Positions 1 through 11,052 of a DNA stretch of 24,000 nt are shown piece after piece; within the stretch, counting starts at the first letter, position 1, and each line of letters begins with the position of its first letter. The stretch is from Actinomycetota bacterium. GTDB lineage: Bacteria > Actinomycetota > Actinomycetes > BP-191. Made by a program: the position numbers and the translations under genes. The notes under the pieces are model-generated. The model was not told the origin of the DNA. It searched no databases and saw nothing but the letters and a program-made list of their open reading frames with translations. The stretch lies in assembly GCA_040005895.1 (NCBI GenBank), contig JBDTYE010000005.1, forward strand, positions 1 to 24,000, in the 5' to 3' direction.

Positions 1-338
1 TCGCGACCGAGTACGGCTCGCCGAAGTGCATCGTGAAGCTCGGCTGCTGGGGACCAGTCGTGAAGTGCAACGTCCCGAAGCGCGGCTGGATGAACGGGAT
101 GGGCGGCTGTCCCAATGTCGGCGGCATCTGCATCGGCTGCACCATGCCGGGCTTCCCCGACAAGTTCATGCCGTTCATGGACGAGCCGCCGGGCGGCAAG
201 CTCTCGACGACCGCTGTCGGCATGTACGGCGCGACGATCCGCCGGCTGCGGACGATCACCACGAAGACCGTCGACAAGGAGCCCAAGTGGCGGCGCCCCG
301 GTCGAGAGTTGACGACCGGCGCCACCCGGACCTGGTAG
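1..338 (+). CDS. hhyS: [NiFe]-hydrogenase small subunit, C-terminal fragment (5' end outside window)
   Basis: Frame 3 is open from the window edge to TAG 336-338. The translation ATEYGSPKCIVKLGCWGPVVKCNVPKRGWMNGMGGCPNVGGICIGCTMPGFPDKF shows the C-terminal Cys-ligand pattern of hydrogenase small-subunit Fe-S clusters. It sits immediately upstream of the large subunit. Confidence 0.85.
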   Translation, partial: ATEYGSPKCIVKLGCWGPVVKCNVPKRGWMNGMGGCPNVGGICIGCTMPGFPDKFMPFMDEPPGGKLSTTAVGMYGATIRRLRTITTKTVDKEPKWRRPGRELTTGATRTW

Positions 339-385
339 CCGAGCCCTGCCCCCTTTCCTCAGTTTCGGAGATGGAGAAAAGCCGC

Positions 386-2179
386 ATGACGACGACCCTG
401 CCGAATCTTAAAAGCACCAAGGAGAAGGACAAGGGCCTTGTCGAAATGGCGTGGGACCCCATCACCAGAATCGTCGGCAGTCTGGGGATCTACACCAAGA
501 TCGACTTCGCCAACAAGAAGGTGGTGGAGTGCAAGAGCACGTCGTCGATCTTCCGCGGCTACAGCATTTTCATGAAGGGCAAGGACCCACGGGACGCGCA
601 CTTCATCACCAGCCGGATCTGCGGCATCTGCGGCGACAACCACGCGACGTGCTCCTGCTACGCGCAGAACATGGCGTACGGCGTGAAGCCGCCGCACCTG
701 GCGGAATGGATCGTCAATCTCGGCGAGGCCGCGGAGTACATGTTCGACCACAACATCTTCCAGGAGAACCTGGTGGGCGTTGACTACTGCGAGCGGATGG
801 TCGCCGAGACCAACCCGGGAGTGCTCGCGAAGGCCGAGAACACGCAGGCGCCGCATTCGGATGCACACGGCTACCGGACCATCGCCGACATCATGCGGGC
901 ACTCAACCCGTTCACCGGCGAGTTCTACCGCGAGGCCCTGCAGGTCAGCAGGTGGACGCGCGAGATGTTCTGCCTGATGGAGGGCCGGCACGTCCACCCG
1001 TCGACCCTCTACCCGGGCGGCGTCGGCACGGTCGCGACCATCCAGCTGATGACCGACTACATCACCCGGCTGATGCGCTACGTCGAGTTCATGAAGAAGG
1101 TCGTCCCGATGCACGACGACCTCTTCGACTTCTTCTATGAGGCGCTGCCCGGCTACGAACAGGTCGGACTTCGCCGGACGCTGCTCGGCTGCTGGGGTTC
1201 CTTCCAGGATCCGGAGTACTGCAACTTCGCCTACAAGGACATGGAGCAGTGGGGCCGCAAGATGTTCGTGACGCCGGGCGTCGTCGTCGACGGCAAGCTC
1301 GTCACGACCAGCCTGGTCGACATCAACCTCGGCATCCGCATCCTGCTTGGCAGCTCCTACTACGACGACTGGACCGAACAGGAGATGTTCGTCACCAAGG
1401 ACCCGCTCGGCAACCCGGTCGACAGGCGACACCCGTGGAACCAGCACACCAACCCGCGCCCGCAGAAGCGCGACCTCGACGACAAGTACAGCTGGGTGAT
1501 GTCACCGCGCTGGTACGACGGCAAGGACTATCTCGCACTCGACACCGGCGGCGGCCCGCTGGCCCGGCTCTGGTCGACCGCGCTGGCCAAGCTCGTCGAC
1601 ATCGGCTACGTGAAGTCCACGGGAACCAGCGTCCAGATCCACTTGCCTAAGACTGCGCTCAAGGGTCCCGTCGACTTCGAGTGGAAGATCCCGCAGTGGA
1701 GCAACACGATCGAGCGCAACCGGGCCCGCACCTACTTCCAGGCGTACGCTGCGGCCTGCGCACTGCACTTCGCGGAGAAGGCGCTCGCCGAGATCCGCGC
1801 CGGCCACACCAAGACCTGGGAGAAGTTCGAGGTCCCGGACGAGGCGATCGGCTGCGGATTCACCGAGGCCGTCCGTGGCGTGCTGTCACACCACATGGTG
1901 ATCAGGGACGGCAAGATCGCCAACTACCACCCGTACCCGCCGACTCCCTGGAACGCGAACCCGCGTGATTCCTACGGGACTCCGGGACCGTACGAGGACG
2001 CGGTGCAGGACCAGCCGCTGTTCGAGGAGAACGACGTCGAGCACTTCAAGGGCATCGACATCATGCGTACCGTGCGCAGCTTCGACCCGTGCCTGCCGTG
2101 CGGCGTACACATGTACCTGGGCGGCGGCAAGACGCTGAAGAAGATTCACTCGCCGACGATGGCGGCGTCACTCGAGTGA
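386..2179 (+). CDS. hhyL: [NiFe]-hydrogenase large subunit, group 1h/5-like (high-affinity uptake type)
   Basis: N-terminal metal-site motif SRICGICGDNH and C-terminal SFDPCLPCGVH, followed by a 22-aa tail (MYLGG...ASLE, 2111-2176) of the kind removed by the maturation protease. GGAG at 373-376 lies 9 nt upstream of ATG 386. ATG 371 is an alternative start with no spacer to its SD. The track ORF from 26 overlaps the small subunit and is an artefact. Confidence 0.95.
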   Translation: MTTTLPNLKSTKEKDKGLVEMAWDPITRIVGSLGIYTKIDFANKKVVECKSTSSIFRGYSIFMKGKDPRDAHFITSRICGICGDNHATCSCYAQNMAYGVKPPHLAEWIVNLGEAAEYMFDHNIFQENLVGVDYCERMVAETNPGVLAKAENTQAPHSDAHGYRTIADIMRALNPFTGEFYREALQVSRWTREMFCLMEGRHVHPSTLYPGGVGTVATIQLMTDYITRLMRYVEFMKKVVPMHDDLFDFFYEALPGYEQVGLRRTLLGCWGSFQDPEYCNFAYKDMEQWGRKMFVTPGVVVDGKLVTTSLVDINLGIRILLGSSYYDDWTEQEMFVTKDPLGNPVDRRHPWNQHTNPRPQKRDLDDKYSWVMSPRWYDGKDYLALDTGGGPLARLWSTALAKLVDIGYVKSTGTSVQIHLPKTALKGPVDFEWKIPQWSNTIERNRARTYFQAYAAACALHFAEKALAEIRAGHTKTWEKFEVPDEAIGCGFTEAVRGVLSHHMVIRDGKIANYHPYPPTPWNANPRDSYGTPGPYEDAVQDQPLFEENDVEHFKGIDIMRTVRSFDPCLPCGVHMYLGGGKTLKKIHSPTMAASLE

Positions 2180-4405: not shown

Positions 4406-5796
4406 CTGTTACGGACGCGCGCCGGGTCGCTGACGCAGTTCTCTACGAGGGCTACCTGTTGTACCCGTACCGCGCGAGTTCTTCGAAGAACCAGGTGCGC
4501 TGGCAGTTCGGGGTCCTCGGTCCGCTCGGCGCGGCGGCAGCCGGCGTCGGTGAGGAGCCCGACCTGCAGGCCGAGATCCCGCTCGAACCGCACGGCTCGC
4601 CGATCGTGCAGGCGCAACTGCGCTTCCTGCACGTGCAGCACCGCGCCGTGCAGCGCTTCGACGGCACGACGTACACGCCGGTCGAAGAACTCCGCGTCGG
4701 CGGCGCCACCTGGATCCCCTGGCATGAAGCTGTCGCGGAGGAGTTCGACCTGCCACCCATGTCACTGGCCGATCTCACCCAAGGTCAGCGGGTTGTCGTT
4801 GCGGTGGAGGGCGGCACGGACGTCGAGCCGTTGTACGAAGCGGACGGCAACATAGTGGGCCGGCTGGTGCGCACCCGGTGGCCGTTGCGCGCTGAAATCA
4901 CGATGTCGGCCCGCTCGGTCACTGAGAGCATGGTGCCGATCGTCCGCGTGCAGGTGCGCAATACCGAGCACTGGCAGGGCGTGGCCGGCGCGGGCAACCG
5001 GATGCACGCCCGCGACGTGGCCGCGAGGACGTCGTTCGTCAGCACGCACCTGCTGCTGTCGGCGCGCGAGGCAGCTTTCATCTCGCCGGCCGATCCGGGG
5101 CCGGAAGCGGTCGACGCGGCAGCCGCCTGCGACAACAGGCGGTGCTGGCCGGTGTTGCTCGGAGATCCGCTGGCGCGCGATCTCGTGCTCATCTCGCCGA
5201 TCATCCTTGACGACTTTCCCGCGGTGTCGAAGGAGAGTCCTGCAGACTTGTTCGACTTGACCGAGATCGACGAGATCCTGACTCTTCGGGTGCTCACGAT
5301 GACCGACGAAGAGAAGGCCGCGGCCCGCGGCACCGATCCGCGGGCAGCCGAGATCGTCGATCGCATCGACGCGATGCCGGCCGAGGAACTCGGGCGTCTG
5401 CACGGCGGCCGGCGGGATGTGCCGGATATGAACGAAGTTCCGACCTTCGCCGAAAGGCAGCCTGACGACTCGACGCCGTGGTGGGATCCGGGCGTCGATG
5501 CCGCAGTCGCGCCGGACCGGGACGCGGTGCGGATCGGTACAGCCCTGGTGCGCAAAGGCAGCCGCGTCGTACTGCGCCCGAGCCGGCGGGCCGACGCCCA
5601 GGATCTGTTCCTGGCCGGGCAGGTCGCAGTGGTGGCCGGCGTCTACTTCGACGTCGACGGTCAGACCCACGTCGCCGTCGTACTCGAGGACGACCCGGCG
5701 GCTGACCTGCACCAGTGGTTCGGCCGCTTCTGGTACTTCGGTCCTGAGGAAATCGAGCCGCTGACGTCACCGCAGGTACCGGACGTGACCAGGTGA
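4402..5796 (+). CDS. Hydrogenase-cluster protein of unknown function (464 aa)
   Basis: ATG 4402 overlaps the upstream stop (ATGA). The ORF begins MTVTDARRVADAVLYEGYLLYPYRASSSKNQVRWQFGV. I can name no recognisable catalytic or cofactor motif. The 3' end overlaps the protease start (GTGA at 5793). Confidence 0.8.
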   Translation: MTVTDARRVADAVLYEGYLLYPYRASSSKNQVRWQFGVLGPLGAAAAGVGEEPDLQAEIPLEPHGSPIVQAQLRFLHVQHRAVQRFDGTTYTPVEELRVGGATWIPWHEAVAEEFDLPPMSLADLTQGQRVVVAVEGGTDVEPLYEADGNIVGRLVRTRWPLRAEITMSARSVTESMVPIVRVQVRNTEHWQGVAGAGNRMHARDVAARTSFVSTHLLLSAREAAFISPADPGPEAVDAAAACDNRRCWPVLLGDPLARDLVLISPIILDDFPAVSKESPADLFDLTEIDEILTLRVLTMTDEEKAAARGTDPRAAEIVDRIDAMPAEELGRLHGGRRDVPDMNEVPTFAERQPDDSTPWWDPGVDAAVAPDRDAVRIGTALVRKGSRVVLRPSRRADAQDLFLAGQVAVVAGVYFDVDGQTHVAVVLEDDPAADLHQWFGRFWYFGPEEIEPLTSPQVPDVTR

Positions 5797-6287
5797 CGGC
5801 GCGCGTCCTCGTCGCCGGCATCGGCAACATTTTTCTCGGCGACGACGGCTTCGGACCCGAAGTTGCCCGGCGGCTTGCGACGCAGCCGCTGCCTGCCGGT
5901 GTCCGGGTCGTCGACTACGGTATCCGCGGCATGCACCTGGCGTACGACCTGCTCGACGGGTTCGACATGCTGGTCCTTGTCGACGCCGTTCCGCGGCGCG
6001 AGCGGCCGGGCGACCTCGTCGTTCTCCAGATCGGACAAGAAGACCTCGGTGAGGGCGATTTCGACGCGCACGGCATGGCACCCGCGGCGGTGCTCGCCGG
6101 GCTCGGCGCACTCGGCGGCGAGCTTCCGCAGCAGACGTACCTGGTCGGCTGCGAGCCCGCGGACGTCGGCGAGCGAATCGGTCTTTCGCCGGCCGTCGAA
6201 GGTGCGATCGACCCCGCCGTCGGCATCGTGATCGACTTGGTTTCGCGCGCGTACGCAACCATCGAAGTAGAGGAGTTCCTGGCATGA
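5793..6287 (+). CDS. hupD: Hydrogenase maturation endopeptidase (HyaD/HupD family)
   Basis: VLVAGIGNIFLGDDGFGPEVARRL...VVDYGIRGMHLAYDLL...LVLVDAV...DAHGM matches the GxGNxxxxDDGxG, D and H metal-binding pattern of large-subunit C-terminal proteases. This is consistent with the cleavable tail on hhyL. Confidence 0.9.
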   Translation: MTARVLVAGIGNIFLGDDGFGPEVARRLATQPLPAGVRVVDYGIRGMHLAYDLLDGFDMLVLVDAVPRRERPGDLVVLQIGQEDLGEGDFDAHGMAPAAVLAGLGALGGELPQQTYLVGCEPADVGERIGLSPAVEGAIDPAVGIVIDLVSRAYATIEVEEFLA

Positions 6288-6403
6288 GAGTTCTCGGATT
6301 GTTCACCGCGGGCATCGTCGGAGCGGCGGCTCTGGTCGGTGTAGCTGTCGGCGTCCGGTCGATTCCCGATATACGCCGCTACCTGCGGATGAGATCCATG
6401 TAG
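6284..6403 (+). CDS. 39-aa predicted single-pass membrane micro-protein (not in supplied ORF track)
   Basis: ATG 6284 overlaps the protease stop (ATGA). GAGGAG at 6270-6275 lies 8 nt upstream. The translation is MRVLGLFTAGIVGAAALVGVAVGVRSIPDIRRYLRMRSM, with TAG at 6401-6403: a hydrophobic helix followed by a basic tail. Confidence 0.65.
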   Translation: MRVLGLFTAGIVGAAALVGVAVGVRSIPDIRRYLRMRSM

Positions 6404-6425
6404 CAACCGGATTCGAGGGTCTGCC

Positions 6426-6821
6426 GTGCACGAGATCAGCTATTGCGAGGGCGTCGCAGACGCCGTGCTGCGCCGCGCGCAGGGTCGGCCGGTGGCGCGC
6501 ATCGGTGTACGAATCGGGGTGGTCCACCGCGTCGTCGCAGCGGCGTTCCAGCAGTCGTTCGAACTCGTCGCCGCCGGCGGACCGGCGGAGGGGGCGACCA
6601 CCGAGTTGGTGGTCGTGCCCGTCAAAGGCAGCTGTCGGGACTGCGGTACGTTGTTCGAGGCCACCGATCCCGCACCGGCGTGCCCTCGCTGCGGCAGTTT
6701 CGATGTCGAGGCGGAAGGCGGCGACGAAGTCGTGCTTGAGTGGATCGAATACCGCGACGTCGAGGTCGAACGCCCGGACGAGCGAGTGCCCGAACACACC
6801 CATCCGGCTGAGGTGGGTTAG
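6426..6821 (+). CDS. hypA: Hydrogenase nickel-insertion protein HypA
   Basis: N-terminal MHE (Ni-binding His2) plus zinc motif CRDCG...CPRCGS. GTG start with GAGGG 6 nt upstream. The protein has a His-containing acidic C-terminal extension. Confidence 0.9.
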   Translation: MHEISYCEGVADAVLRRAQGRPVARIGVRIGVVHRVVAAAFQQSFELVAAGGPAEGATTELVVVPVKGSCRDCGTLFEATDPAPACPRCGSFDVEAEGGDEVVLEWIEYRDVEVERPDERVPEHTHPAEVG

Positions 6822-6823
6822 CC

Positions 6824-7099
6824 ATGTGCCTGGCGATTCCCGGTGAGGTCGTGGAGTTCCTCCCCGACACGGGCGGCCAACTCGCAATGGTCGACGTGGT
6901 CGGCGTGAAGCGGCGCATCAACATCGGTCTGCTCGAGGACGTACCGCTCGACGTCGGCGACTGGGTGCTCATCCACGTCGGCTTCGCGATGAGCAAGGTC
7001 GACGAGCGTGAGGCGGCGGAAGCTCTGTCGATGCTGGAGATGATGGGCCAGACGTTCACGGACGAACTGCAGGCCGTCGCCGAGTCGAGCATCGAATGA
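6824..7099 (+). CDS. hypC: Hydrogenase assembly chaperone HypC
   Basis: Canonical N-terminus MCLAIPGEVV (essential Cys2) and GDWVLIHVGFAM core. 91 aa. Confidence 0.92.
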   Translation: MCLAIPGEVVEFLPDTGGQLAMVDVVGVKRRINIGLLEDVPLDVGDWVLIHVGFAMSKVDEREAAEALSMLEMMGQTFTDELQAVAESSIE

Positions 7100-9792: not shown

Positions 9793-11052
9793 TCAGGTGG
9801 CGAGGGCTGCCCGGGTTGCTTCCCAGAGCACGTGGTAGAGCGTCGTCTGCACCTCCTGCACGCGGTGCACCGAGGCGGACGGAACCGCGAACAGATGCGC
9901 GAGGCTGGCCATCTCGGCCATCCGGCCGCCGCCGTAGCCGGCCAGGCCGACGGTTATGAGACCGGCCTGGGAGCCCTCTTCGATCGCCGCCAGGACATTC
10001 GGCGAGCCGCCGCTCGTCGACAGGGCGACCGCGATGTCGCCCGGCCGGCCGAACGCACGCAGCTGGCGGGCGAAGACGACGTCGAAGCCGACGTCGTTCG
10101 TCAGAGCCGTGACCACGGCAACGTCGTTGGTGAGGCTCAGTGCCGGCAGCGGATCGGCCGGGGGCGGGGGATCGATGAACGTATGCGCCAGATCCTGCGC
10201 GTCCGTGCTGCTTCCGCCATTGCCGAAGGAGAACAACGTCGCTCCCGCGGAGAAGGCCTTGGACAGTTGCGCCGCGCATTCGGCCAGGGCGGCCGAGTGG
10301 GCGACGGCGACCTCCTGCCGTAGCCCCAGAACCTCCGCAATCTTCTGCCGCGCCGACTCCGCAGCGGCTTCGAGTACGGGGCGGTCGGGGCCGCCGCCGT
10401 ACAGGAACGGGTAGAGCGACTCCACGCCGCCAGCGGACCGCTGCGTGTCGTCGGCCTCGGGCGATTCGAAGAAGACGTGCACGAGCTCCCAAAGCAGGTG
10501 GTACGCCGTGACGTGGCACTCCTTCACCGTGAGGGGATCGTCGCTGCGGACCACAAGAACGTGGTCGGCCTCGCCCTCGCCGGCAATCTCGCCGCCGTCG
10601 CCGCCGACGAGGGCGATCGTCAAGAGCCCGGCGGCCCGGGCGGCGCGCAGGCCGGCCCGCACGTTGGCGCACCGTCCGTCTCTGGAGAGGCCGAGGGCGA
10701 TGTCGTCCGATCGTCCGAGTACGCCGATCTGGTGCGAGTAAACGCTGTCGAGGCCGCCCCTCGCGGCGACGCCCATGAGCGTCGCCACATCGCTGGCGAG
10801 GGAGATCGCCGGAAGGGCGCGCTTGCCGACTATCACCGGGTGCACGAACTCGACCGCGATGTGCTGCGCGTCGGTGGTGCCGGCGCCGTTGCCGAACACG
10901 AGCAGCCGGCCGCCGCGCGTGAACTGCTCTGCCATCGCGCGACACGCAAGAGCCAGCGACGTCACGTCGTCGACCATCGCGAGGACTGGACCTACCCGGC
11001 GCTCGAAGGCAGCGGCGATGACGTCGGGCACGGACGCGTTGACTTTCGTCAA
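9793..11052 (-). CDS. Tandem SIS-domain protein (two GmhA/phosphoheptose-isomerase-like sugar-phosphate-binding domains)
   Basis: Two copies of the SIS pattern. The N-terminal half has LVFGNGAGTTDAQHIAVEF...LGLSRDGRCANV...LVGGDGGEI. The C-terminal half has FSFGNGGSSTDAQDLAHTF...ALSTSGGSPNVL...LAGYGGGRM. TTG start at 11052 with GGGGAGA 5 nt upstream. Confidence 0.85.
   Translation of the reverse strand: MTKVNASVPDVIAAAFERRVGPVLAMVDDVTSLALACRAMAEQFTRGGRLLVFGNGAGTTDAQHIAVEFVHPVIVGKRALPAISLASDVATLMGVAARGGLDSVYSHQIGVLGRSDDIALGLSRDGRCANVRAGLRAARAAGLLTIALVGGDGGEIAGEGEADHVLVVRSDDPLTVKECHVTAYHLLWELVHVFFESPEADDTQRSAGGVESLYPFLYGGGPDRPVLEAAAESARQKIAEVLGLRQEVAVAHSAALAECAAQLSKAFSAGATLFSFGNGGSSTDAQDLAHTFIDPPPPADPLPALSLTNDVAVVTALTNDVGFDVVFARQLRAFGRPGDIAVALSTSGGSPNVLAAIEEGSQAGLITVGLAGYGGGRMAEMASLAHLFAVPSASVHRVQEVQTTLYHVLWEATRAALAT

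Follow-up and report, generated by a model that had tools for sequence, protein, structure and literature searches.

How group 1h [NiFe]-hydrogenases are retained at the membrane and feed their electrons into the respiratory chain, without a transmembrane subunit or a cytochrome b, has been an open question since 2014 (bioRxiv 10.1101/769216, PMC6883350, PMC7174314). The stretch of DNA analysed here, referred to as the window, comprises 24,000 nucleotides of an Actinomycetota genome (GCA_040005895.1, contig JBDTYE010000005.1, positions 1 to 24,000) and begins with an operon for such an enzyme. Between hupD, which encodes a hydrogenase maturation endopeptidase, and hypA lies a very short open reading frame (ORF) of 39 codons followed by TAG, at 6284..6403 on the forward strand, whose product, MRVLGLFTAGIVGAAALVGVAVGVRSIPDIRRYLRMRSM, was obtained by direct reading of the sequence and from the list of ORFs. 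Is this micro-ORF a gene, and might its product be what holds the hydrogenase, or its assembly, at the membrane? An earlier annotation made from the letters alone, here called the sequence-only reading, had taken it to be translated and to encode the operon's only predicted membrane element.

The micro-ORF as a member of DUF6893

Several lines of sequence evidence indicate that the micro-ORF is a genuine translated gene and a new, ordinary member of a catalogued family, DUF6893. The peptide matches PF21833 (DUF6893) with a score of 58.7 bits (E = 5.5e-16), against a gathering cut-off of 24.6 bits, and its residues 9-39 cover positions 2-32 of the 32-position profile. In a six-frame search of the genome with DUF6893 the micro-ORF scored 57.1 bits; the genome, a 2.5-Mb metagenome assembly that is 73% complete, holds this one copy. 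RefSeq labels the relatives 'DUF6893 family small protein' in Mycolicibacterium, Mycobacterium, Streptomyces, Arthrobacter and Rubrobacter, named examples being WP_096310999.1 (Mycolicibacterium), WP_085929192.1 (Arthrobacter globiformis) and WP_420542105.1 (Rubrobacter naiadicus). These proteins share with the window peptide their length class (32-40 residues), the helix, the tail motif and the place in the operon beside the protease, and the window peptide differs from them in nothing material. The DUF that the sequence-only reading had placed beside actinobacterial hydrogenase genes thus exists, and under an NCBI name. NCBIfam has no model for the micro-protein, and 'DUF6893' is unmentioned in the searchable literature. 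Because a collection of 15 billion proteins does not contain the exact peptide, the micro-gene has probably gone uncalled in this metagenome-assembled genome (MAG).

By base composition the micro-ORF is only weakly coding-like, with G+C contents at the first, second and third codon positions of 0.64, 0.51 and 0.69, compared with 0.79-0.88 at the third position of neighbouring genes. Its relatives are more telling. Among 111 unique genes, the arginine at position -8 from the carboxyl end is written with all six arginine codons (CGC 67, CGG 21, AGG 9, CGT 9, CGA 2, AGA 2), as is the arginine at -3, while Tyr -7, Pro -12 and Asp -11 are each encoded by their full set of common codons. For the final 29 codons, the median ratio of non-synonymous to synonymous substitution (dN/dS) is 0.69 in frame, as against 1.16 and 1.19 in the other two frames. 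The micro-protein is 72% identical to its orthologue from the same genus, and the neighbouring genes are 54-93% identical. Taken together, these patterns indicate that selection acts on the peptide and not on the DNA; a spurious ORF is excluded by the Pfam match, the orthologues and the codon variety at invariant residues. The peptide ends in Met directly before the stop codon in 109 of the 111 copies. In one of the two exceptions (L106, Planotetraspora sp., frame ending at 10003) the frame continues past the motif ...RYLEIRKM for some 20 further codons, possibly owing to loss of the stop codon or an error in sequencing; in the other (L062, a Mycobacteriales MAG) the sole copy found is well away from the usual site and on the opposite (-) strand, and its frame ends at 1300 in Leu.

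The signals for translation are likewise conserved. In the window the ATG at 6284-6286 shares bases with the TGA of hupD at 6285-6287, forming ATGA. A purine-rich box (GGAG, GAGG or AAGG) precedes the start by 5-10 nucleotides in nearly all of 73 orthologues, and a four-nucleotide overlap with the upstream gene is the commonest arrangement (35 of 73 loci; median gap -4). The start of the micro-ORF is usually coupled to the upstream gene, and the sequence-only reading, which had described a genuine, coupled micro-ORF with a GAGGAG box, an 8-nucleotide spacer and an ATGA overlap, is borne out by both the sequence and the orthologues.

The 80 loci most like the window operon were collected with a four-sequence DUF6084 alignment. 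The micro-ORF stands at the same operon position in all 77 that could be assessed, the contigs of the other three stopping short. The outcome that had been named as telling against the ORF, conservation of the nucleotide spacer only, is thus not what these 77 loci and the codons of the 111 genes display. In a wider survey of 401 genomes sampled across Actinomycetota, DUF6893 was matched in 37 at E <= 0.001, two of which, weak hits inside long frames, were counted as false, and DUF6084, the marker of the 1h operon, was matched in 45. Of about 35 credible DUF6893-positive genomes, 33 also hold DUF6084, where about four would be expected by chance. A further DUF6084 genome (L042) has a divergent DUF6893 copy that the filter missed; in two more the contig ends before the expected site, and in G334 (L036) neither hupD nor the micro-ORF was detectable. 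In all, DUF6893 is present in about 34 of 43 assessable actinobacterial 1h operons (79%) and is not universal.

Nor is the family confined to Actinobacteria, as the sequence-only reading had implied. In a second phylum, that of a Dehalococcoidia MAG, it occurs in 31 of 251 genomes, and the 11 loci inspected there have the order 472-residue-protein gene, hupD, DUF6893, followed in most by hypA. A betaproteobacterial copy of 33 codons, MKGFLKYLVLPALVVALLANIKDIRRYIRIRSM, lies on plasmid pHG1 of Cupriavidus necator H16 between the 1h protease gene and hypF, with its own GGAGG box and E = 7e-10 against the family profile made here. Like the window copy it is directly downstream of the 1h maturation protease; unlike it, its hydrophobic stretch is only about 13 residues long, with a Pro, compared with 22. 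Only the family profile found this copy, since a tblastn search of plasmids with the peptide returned nothing, probably owing to low-complexity masking. In M. intracellulare subsp. chimaera, the 437-kb plasmid NZ_CP012886.2 carries a complete 1h operon with a nuoA-E cluster immediately after it, and a 39-residue DUF6893 (L148:7985-8112) in an unannotated 127-nucleotide gap before the protease gene. In M. smegmatis, a microarray study found a 'hypothetical protein', MSMEG_2714, located between MSMEG_2715 and the M52 peptidase MSMEG_2713, to be induced with the hydrogenase cluster (PMC5445863); from its position, which matches the mycobacterial loci, we infer that this is the DUF6893 gene. Orphan copies were found in two species of one genus (L130:~1240-1354 and L131:2716-~2830), their surroundings being free of hydrogenase and hyp genes for about 7 kb; L130 has a GAF-ANTAR regulator some 1.2 kb downstream of the copy.

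A hydrophobic helix and an invariant tail

The window peptide contains an uncharged run of 22 residues (3-24) with a maximum of 2.24 on the 19-residue Kyte-Doolittle scale (KD19), flanked by charges of +1 on the N-terminal and +4 on the C-terminal side. The single hydrophobic helix and basic tail of the sequence-only reading are thereby upheld, as is its claim that this is the one membrane-like element of the operon: all other operon proteins reach at most 1.66, and the micro-protein is the only strongly hydrophobic product. In particular, the visible C-terminus of the small subunit HhyS (111 residues) lacks the hydrophobic anchor helix of classical group 1 membrane-bound hydrogenases.

An AlphaFold2 model of the single chain, made from a 66-sequence alignment, has a helix at residues 2-25 (predicted local distance difference test score, pLDDT, 95-99), a break at residue 26 and a second helix at 27-38, with a mean pLDDT of 96.1. 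The peptide is thus predicted to form a long helix that kinks at Ser-Ile-Pro and is followed by a short, basic one ending exactly at the C-terminal Met. A profile search of the Protein Data Bank (PDB) gave chance hits only, every E being above 2, and no related solved structure.

The two halves of the peptide have been conserved very differently. The sequence of the N-terminal helix is poorly conserved, its hydrophobicity being maintained, whereas the carboxyl end follows the family pattern (S/Q)-(I/L/V)-P-D-(I/L/V)-x-R-Y-(L/M/F)-(K/R)-(I/M)-R-x-M. Across the 66 sequences R32, Y33 and M39 are invariant and P28, D29 and R37 are at least 90% conserved; the window peptide has the R-Y pair, the R at -3 and the terminal Met (R32, Y33, R37, M39). 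Each of the 33 library representatives is a separate protein of 38-67 residues whose match ends at the last residue, and no fusion (Rosetta-stone) partner was found among the relatives drawn from 1.84 billion representatives, all of them 38-67 residues long.

A proposed membrane tether and its alternatives

The best explanation, to be held tentatively, is that DUF6893 is a membrane tether in the broad sense, whose conserved cytoplasmic tail docks either the hydrogenase or the last step of its maturation. The sequence-only reading had already suggested that the micro-protein could tether or localise the enzyme or its maturation machinery, an idea that is in part supported. The N-terminal helix would insert into the cytoplasmic membrane with its N-terminus out and its C-terminus in, an orientation proposed because the C-terminal flank carries +4 and the N-terminal flank +1. 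At the cytoplasmic face the invariant tail, P-D-x-x-R-Y-x-+-x-R-x-M-COOH, would bind a protein from the same operon, which might be HhyS/HhyL, HupD or another accessory protein. The helix would then be a low-specificity anchor and the tail the specific docking element, and the hydrogenase would be kept at the membrane, where it must pass electrons to the quinone pool, most likely from HupD-mediated C-terminal processing onward. This proposal fits the literature, in which the 1h enzyme Hhy is firmly membrane-bound and has no known transmembrane segment. In M. smegmatis Hhy is found in the membrane fraction only, withstands extraction with 5% cholate and is predicted to have neither a transmembrane region nor a signal peptide (bioRxiv 10.1101/769216), and its operon encodes no cytochrome b (PMC6883350). 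The 1h enzyme of Methylacidiphilum loses its affinity on detachment from the membrane, to which it is held by an anchor described as unknown (PMC7174314).

In a stricter form of the proposal, which we regard as unlikely, DUF6893 would be the missing membrane subunit of 1h hydrogenases, the helix spanning the membrane and the invariant tail clamping HhyS/HhyL. If true, this would account for why Hhy stays bound in detergent, why it couples to menaquinone and why its high H2 affinity is lost once it leaves the membrane. The identity of the docked partner is pulled in two directions: the gene neighbourhood and the copies in hyp clusters favour HupD or maturation, while the gap in the literature favours the enzyme itself, as does the co-variation between tail and large subunit, which is weak but slightly stronger than that with HupD.

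Small single-helix proteins that accompany larger complexes are familiar from other systems. CydX, KdpF, AcrZ and yeast QCR10 are 30-50 residues long, have one helix and are encoded in the operon of the complex that they bind. DUF6893 has no sequence relation to them; QCR10 (PF09796) was the sole hit, and at 14.3 bits against a cut-off of 27.5 the peptide is not a member of that family. Among hydrogenases, a single hydrophobic helix holds the enzyme at the membrane in the HyaA/HyaC and HoxK/HoxZ systems (PMC6883350). There, however, the helix is fused to a small subunit exported by the twin-arginine translocation (Tat) pathway and is paired with a haem b protein, whereas the 1h operon has an anchorless HhyS, lacks a gene for cytochrome b and encodes the helix separately. 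HucM, which serves the M. smegmatis group 2a hydrogenase Huc as a membrane-associated scaffold (PMC10017518), offers a possible working analogy, being likewise a small non-catalytic operon product. It links a cytoplasmic, Tat-less hydrogenase for atmospheric H2 to the membrane and turns a basic patch towards the lipid head groups (PMC10017518). Compared by description, HucM is a peripheral protein of 189 residues that forms a tetrameric tube of amphipathic coiled coils, while DUF6893 has 39 residues and one hydrophobic helix and is not known to be homologous to it; given this size and the predicted single helix, DUF6893 is unlikely to belong among HucM-like scaffolds.

A number of observations weigh against a tether. 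Where members of the 39-residue class, the window peptide included, have 21-26 uncharged residues and KD19 values of 1.9-3.2, those of 32-36 residues have an uncharged run of only 12-16 residues bracketed by Arg or Lys, and in some of them the charge bias is neutral or reversed. Across the family the median run is 16 (range 12-26) and the charge bias is mixed; because of these short runs and mixed biases, a conserved N-out/C-in topology is not assured family-wide. Membrane spanning is accordingly a good prediction for the window peptide and not a secure one for the family as a whole. The micro-ORF is also missing from about one in five assessable actinobacterial 1h operons: in eight loci (L037, L038, L039, L041, L043, L044, L046 and L047) hupD abuts hypA with no DUF6893 between, and no substitute hydrophobic micro-ORF was present in the nine DUF6893-less loci checked. 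The eight form a divergent 1h branch whose large subunit is 62-66% identical to that of the window. The homologue of the 472-residue protein is unusually divergent there too, at 25-29% identity. Comparison of HupD with and without a DUF6893 neighbour gave many differences, which are confounded, since the group without it is a single divergent lineage. The sequence-only reading needs correction on both counts, the family being missing from the divergent branch and the hydrophobic stretch of many members being too short for a textbook transmembrane helix. A mirror-tree comparison of DUF6893 with seven operon proteins in 43 operons gave raw correlations (r) of 0.48-0.62, reflecting shared phylogeny, and partial correlations all at or below 0.21 (tail with large subunit 0.21; HupD 0.04-0.10), and thus no partner signal. 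C. necator has the micro-ORF though its 1h enzyme is described as cytoplasmic and of low affinity (PMC7174314). Finally, in Mycobacterium lacus and in G423 (L049), which have no 1h accessory genes, the micro-ORF stays with hupD and hyp genes, a pattern that speaks for maturation and not for the finished enzyme.

The last observation belongs to an alternative that is possible, if rather unlikely, namely that DUF6893 is a maturation factor only, which works with HupD, perhaps by determining where at the membrane or when HhyL is cleaved at its C-terminus, and is neither part of the finished enzyme nor its anchor. The micro-ORF adjoins hupD in 75 of the 77 related loci and does so on either side. 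The order 472-residue-protein gene, hupD, micro-ORF, hypA or hypC is found in about 38 loci, the window among them, and the order 472-residue-protein gene, micro-ORF, hupD, hypC in about 37, from mycobacteria and Arthrobacter. It belongs to the maturation half, between hupD and hypA/hypC, and in L029 two copies flank hupD (1501-1617 and 2433-2546, - strand); another copy is directly upstream of hypC (L132). This adjacency may nevertheless reflect only one or two rearrangements, the operon order having been inherited whole. The M. lacus locus (L048:5828-12776, G282), with the order nicO, hypA, hypB, a 119-residue fragment, DUF6893, hupD, an 82-residue ORF, hypF, hypC, can also be read in two ways. 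It keeps DUF6893 with hupD in a genome lacking DUF6084, and the motifs read from a large subunit there (L1 RVCGIC, L2 DPCISCSAH) show that subunit not to be 1h. Yet the 119-residue fragment gives a faint hit resembling a NiFe small subunit and the peptide has the sole His at -4 among the 111 copies, and the locus looks like a 1h operon that has lost its structural genes, a deletion remnant in which micro-ORF and protease were kept. The partial correlation with HupD is, moreover, among the lowest in the mirror-tree comparison, and we know of no hydrogenase endopeptidase that needs a membrane partner. Multiple copies are not restricted to the flanks of hupD: tandem copies occur in L079 (9528-9629 and 9634-9750) and L140 (two). 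The copy upstream of hupD in L029, L034 and L035 is of a distinct 'MEKW...ASxDDIKRY' subtype.

That DUF6893 is not a membrane protein at all, the helix being buried within a protein complex, where the peptide would be a small additional subunit of the hydrogenase or an accessory protein or a chaperone-like clamp on it, or lying in the plane of the membrane surface, seems improbable. The short-class members, with charged residues on both sides of their short runs, the clades in which the charge bias is inconsistent, and the C. necator copy, Pro-interrupted and associated with an enzyme reported as cytoplasmic (PMC7174314), would all suit such an arrangement. Against this, the run in the 39-residue class is long and strongly hydrophobic, and the helix drifts freely in sequence yet stays hydrophobic, as is typical of helices that face lipid rather than protein. 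The crystal structures of the C. necator 1h enzyme (Schafer et al. 2016) reportedly contain the small and large subunits only. It is very improbable that the micro-ORF acts merely in cis, the tail stalling the ribosome or coupling translation so as to set downstream expression, with the peptide having no role in trans. The motif does end exactly at the stop codon in all but two copies, the spacing to the flanking genes is tight, and a peptide of 32-39 residues can be accommodated in the ribosomal exit tunnel, like TnaC and SpeFL. On the other hand the downstream gene varies (hypA, hypC or hupD), all three stop codons are used (TGA 78, TAG 25 and TAA 8 in 111 copies), there are orphan copies away from hydrogenase genes, no RNA family is matched, and the spacer of at most 22 nucleotides leaves no room for an attenuator. 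The N-terminal half also keeps its hydrophobicity, and to our knowledge no arrest peptide of this size requires a hydrophobic N-terminal half. With its variable downstream gene and stop codon and no Rfam element, the micro-ORF was rejected as a ribosome-arrest or leader peptide of the TnaC, SpeFL, SecM or MifM type.

The hydrogenase operon and the place of the micro-gene

The operon runs on the forward strand from 2 to about 9544. Its first half encodes the large subunit, a NifU-like protein, DUF5947, DUF6084 and the 472-residue protein without a family; the second half consists of hupD, the micro-ORF, hypA, hypC, a second hypC-like gene, hypD and hypE. The micro-ORF occurs together with the 1h large subunit, DUF5947, DUF6084 and a HupD-type protease, as an accessory gene of a group 1h operon whose order recurs in the 77 related loci, and the nearest relatives of the operon are those of Frankiales and Mycobacteriales MAGs. 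In translation the large subunit ends in SFDPCLPCGVH (the L2 motif) plus a 22-residue extension; this C-terminus is taken, from the sequence, to be a group 1h signature and the substrate of HupD. Downstream of the micro-ORF, whose stop codon occupies 6401-6403, hypA begins with GTG after 22 nucleotides and has its own GAGGG box at 6415-6419. A search of both strands of 5600-7000 against Rfam matched no family. Two antisense ORFs (5915..6406 and 6303..6887, - strand) are regarded as artefacts of high G+C content because well-supported genes lie beneath them.

Table 1. Coordinates of the micro-gene, its parts and neighbours in the window, and of the copy on pHG1
Feature	Position	Strand	Basis or remark
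Shine-Dalgarno sequence GAGGAG	6270..6275	+	8-nucleotide spacer to ATG of micro-ORF
DUF6893 micro-protein gene	6284..6403	+	ORF list, PF21833 58.7 bits, orthologues
Hydrophobic helix, residues 3-24, VLGLFTAGIVGAAALVGVAVGV	6290..6355	+	Gly/Ala-rich, predicted membrane-spanning; KD19 and AlphaFold2
Conserved C-terminal tail SIPDIRRYLRMRSM, residues 26-39	6359..6400	+	alignment of orthologues
HupD/HyaD-type hydrogenase maturation endopeptidase	5793..6287	+	TIGR00072 122 bits, PF01750
hypA	6426..6821	+	PF01155 82.6 bits
Group 1h [NiFe]-hydrogenase large subunit	2..2179 (reading frame; true start further in)	+	PF00374
Small subunit (HhyS), C-terminal 111 residues visible, ending KEPKWRRPGRELTTGATRTW	3..338	+	
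pHG1 DUF6893 ORF	L147:8658-8759 (NC_005241.1 about 66753-66854)		absent from plasmid gene table used

Gene callers often miss DUF6893: the gene table used for pHG1 lacks it, and the window sequence is off record. The family itself is already catalogued, and its function is at present hypothetical. If DUF6893 served maturation only, it would be the first membrane-linked factor in the assembly of [NiFe]-hydrogenases. Much of the uptake of atmospheric H2 by soil, the soil sink, is attributed to group 1h hydrogenases, and a conserved, translationally coupled, hydrophobic micro-protein encoded in most of their operons provides a testable candidate for the means by which the enzyme, or its assembly, may be held at the membrane.

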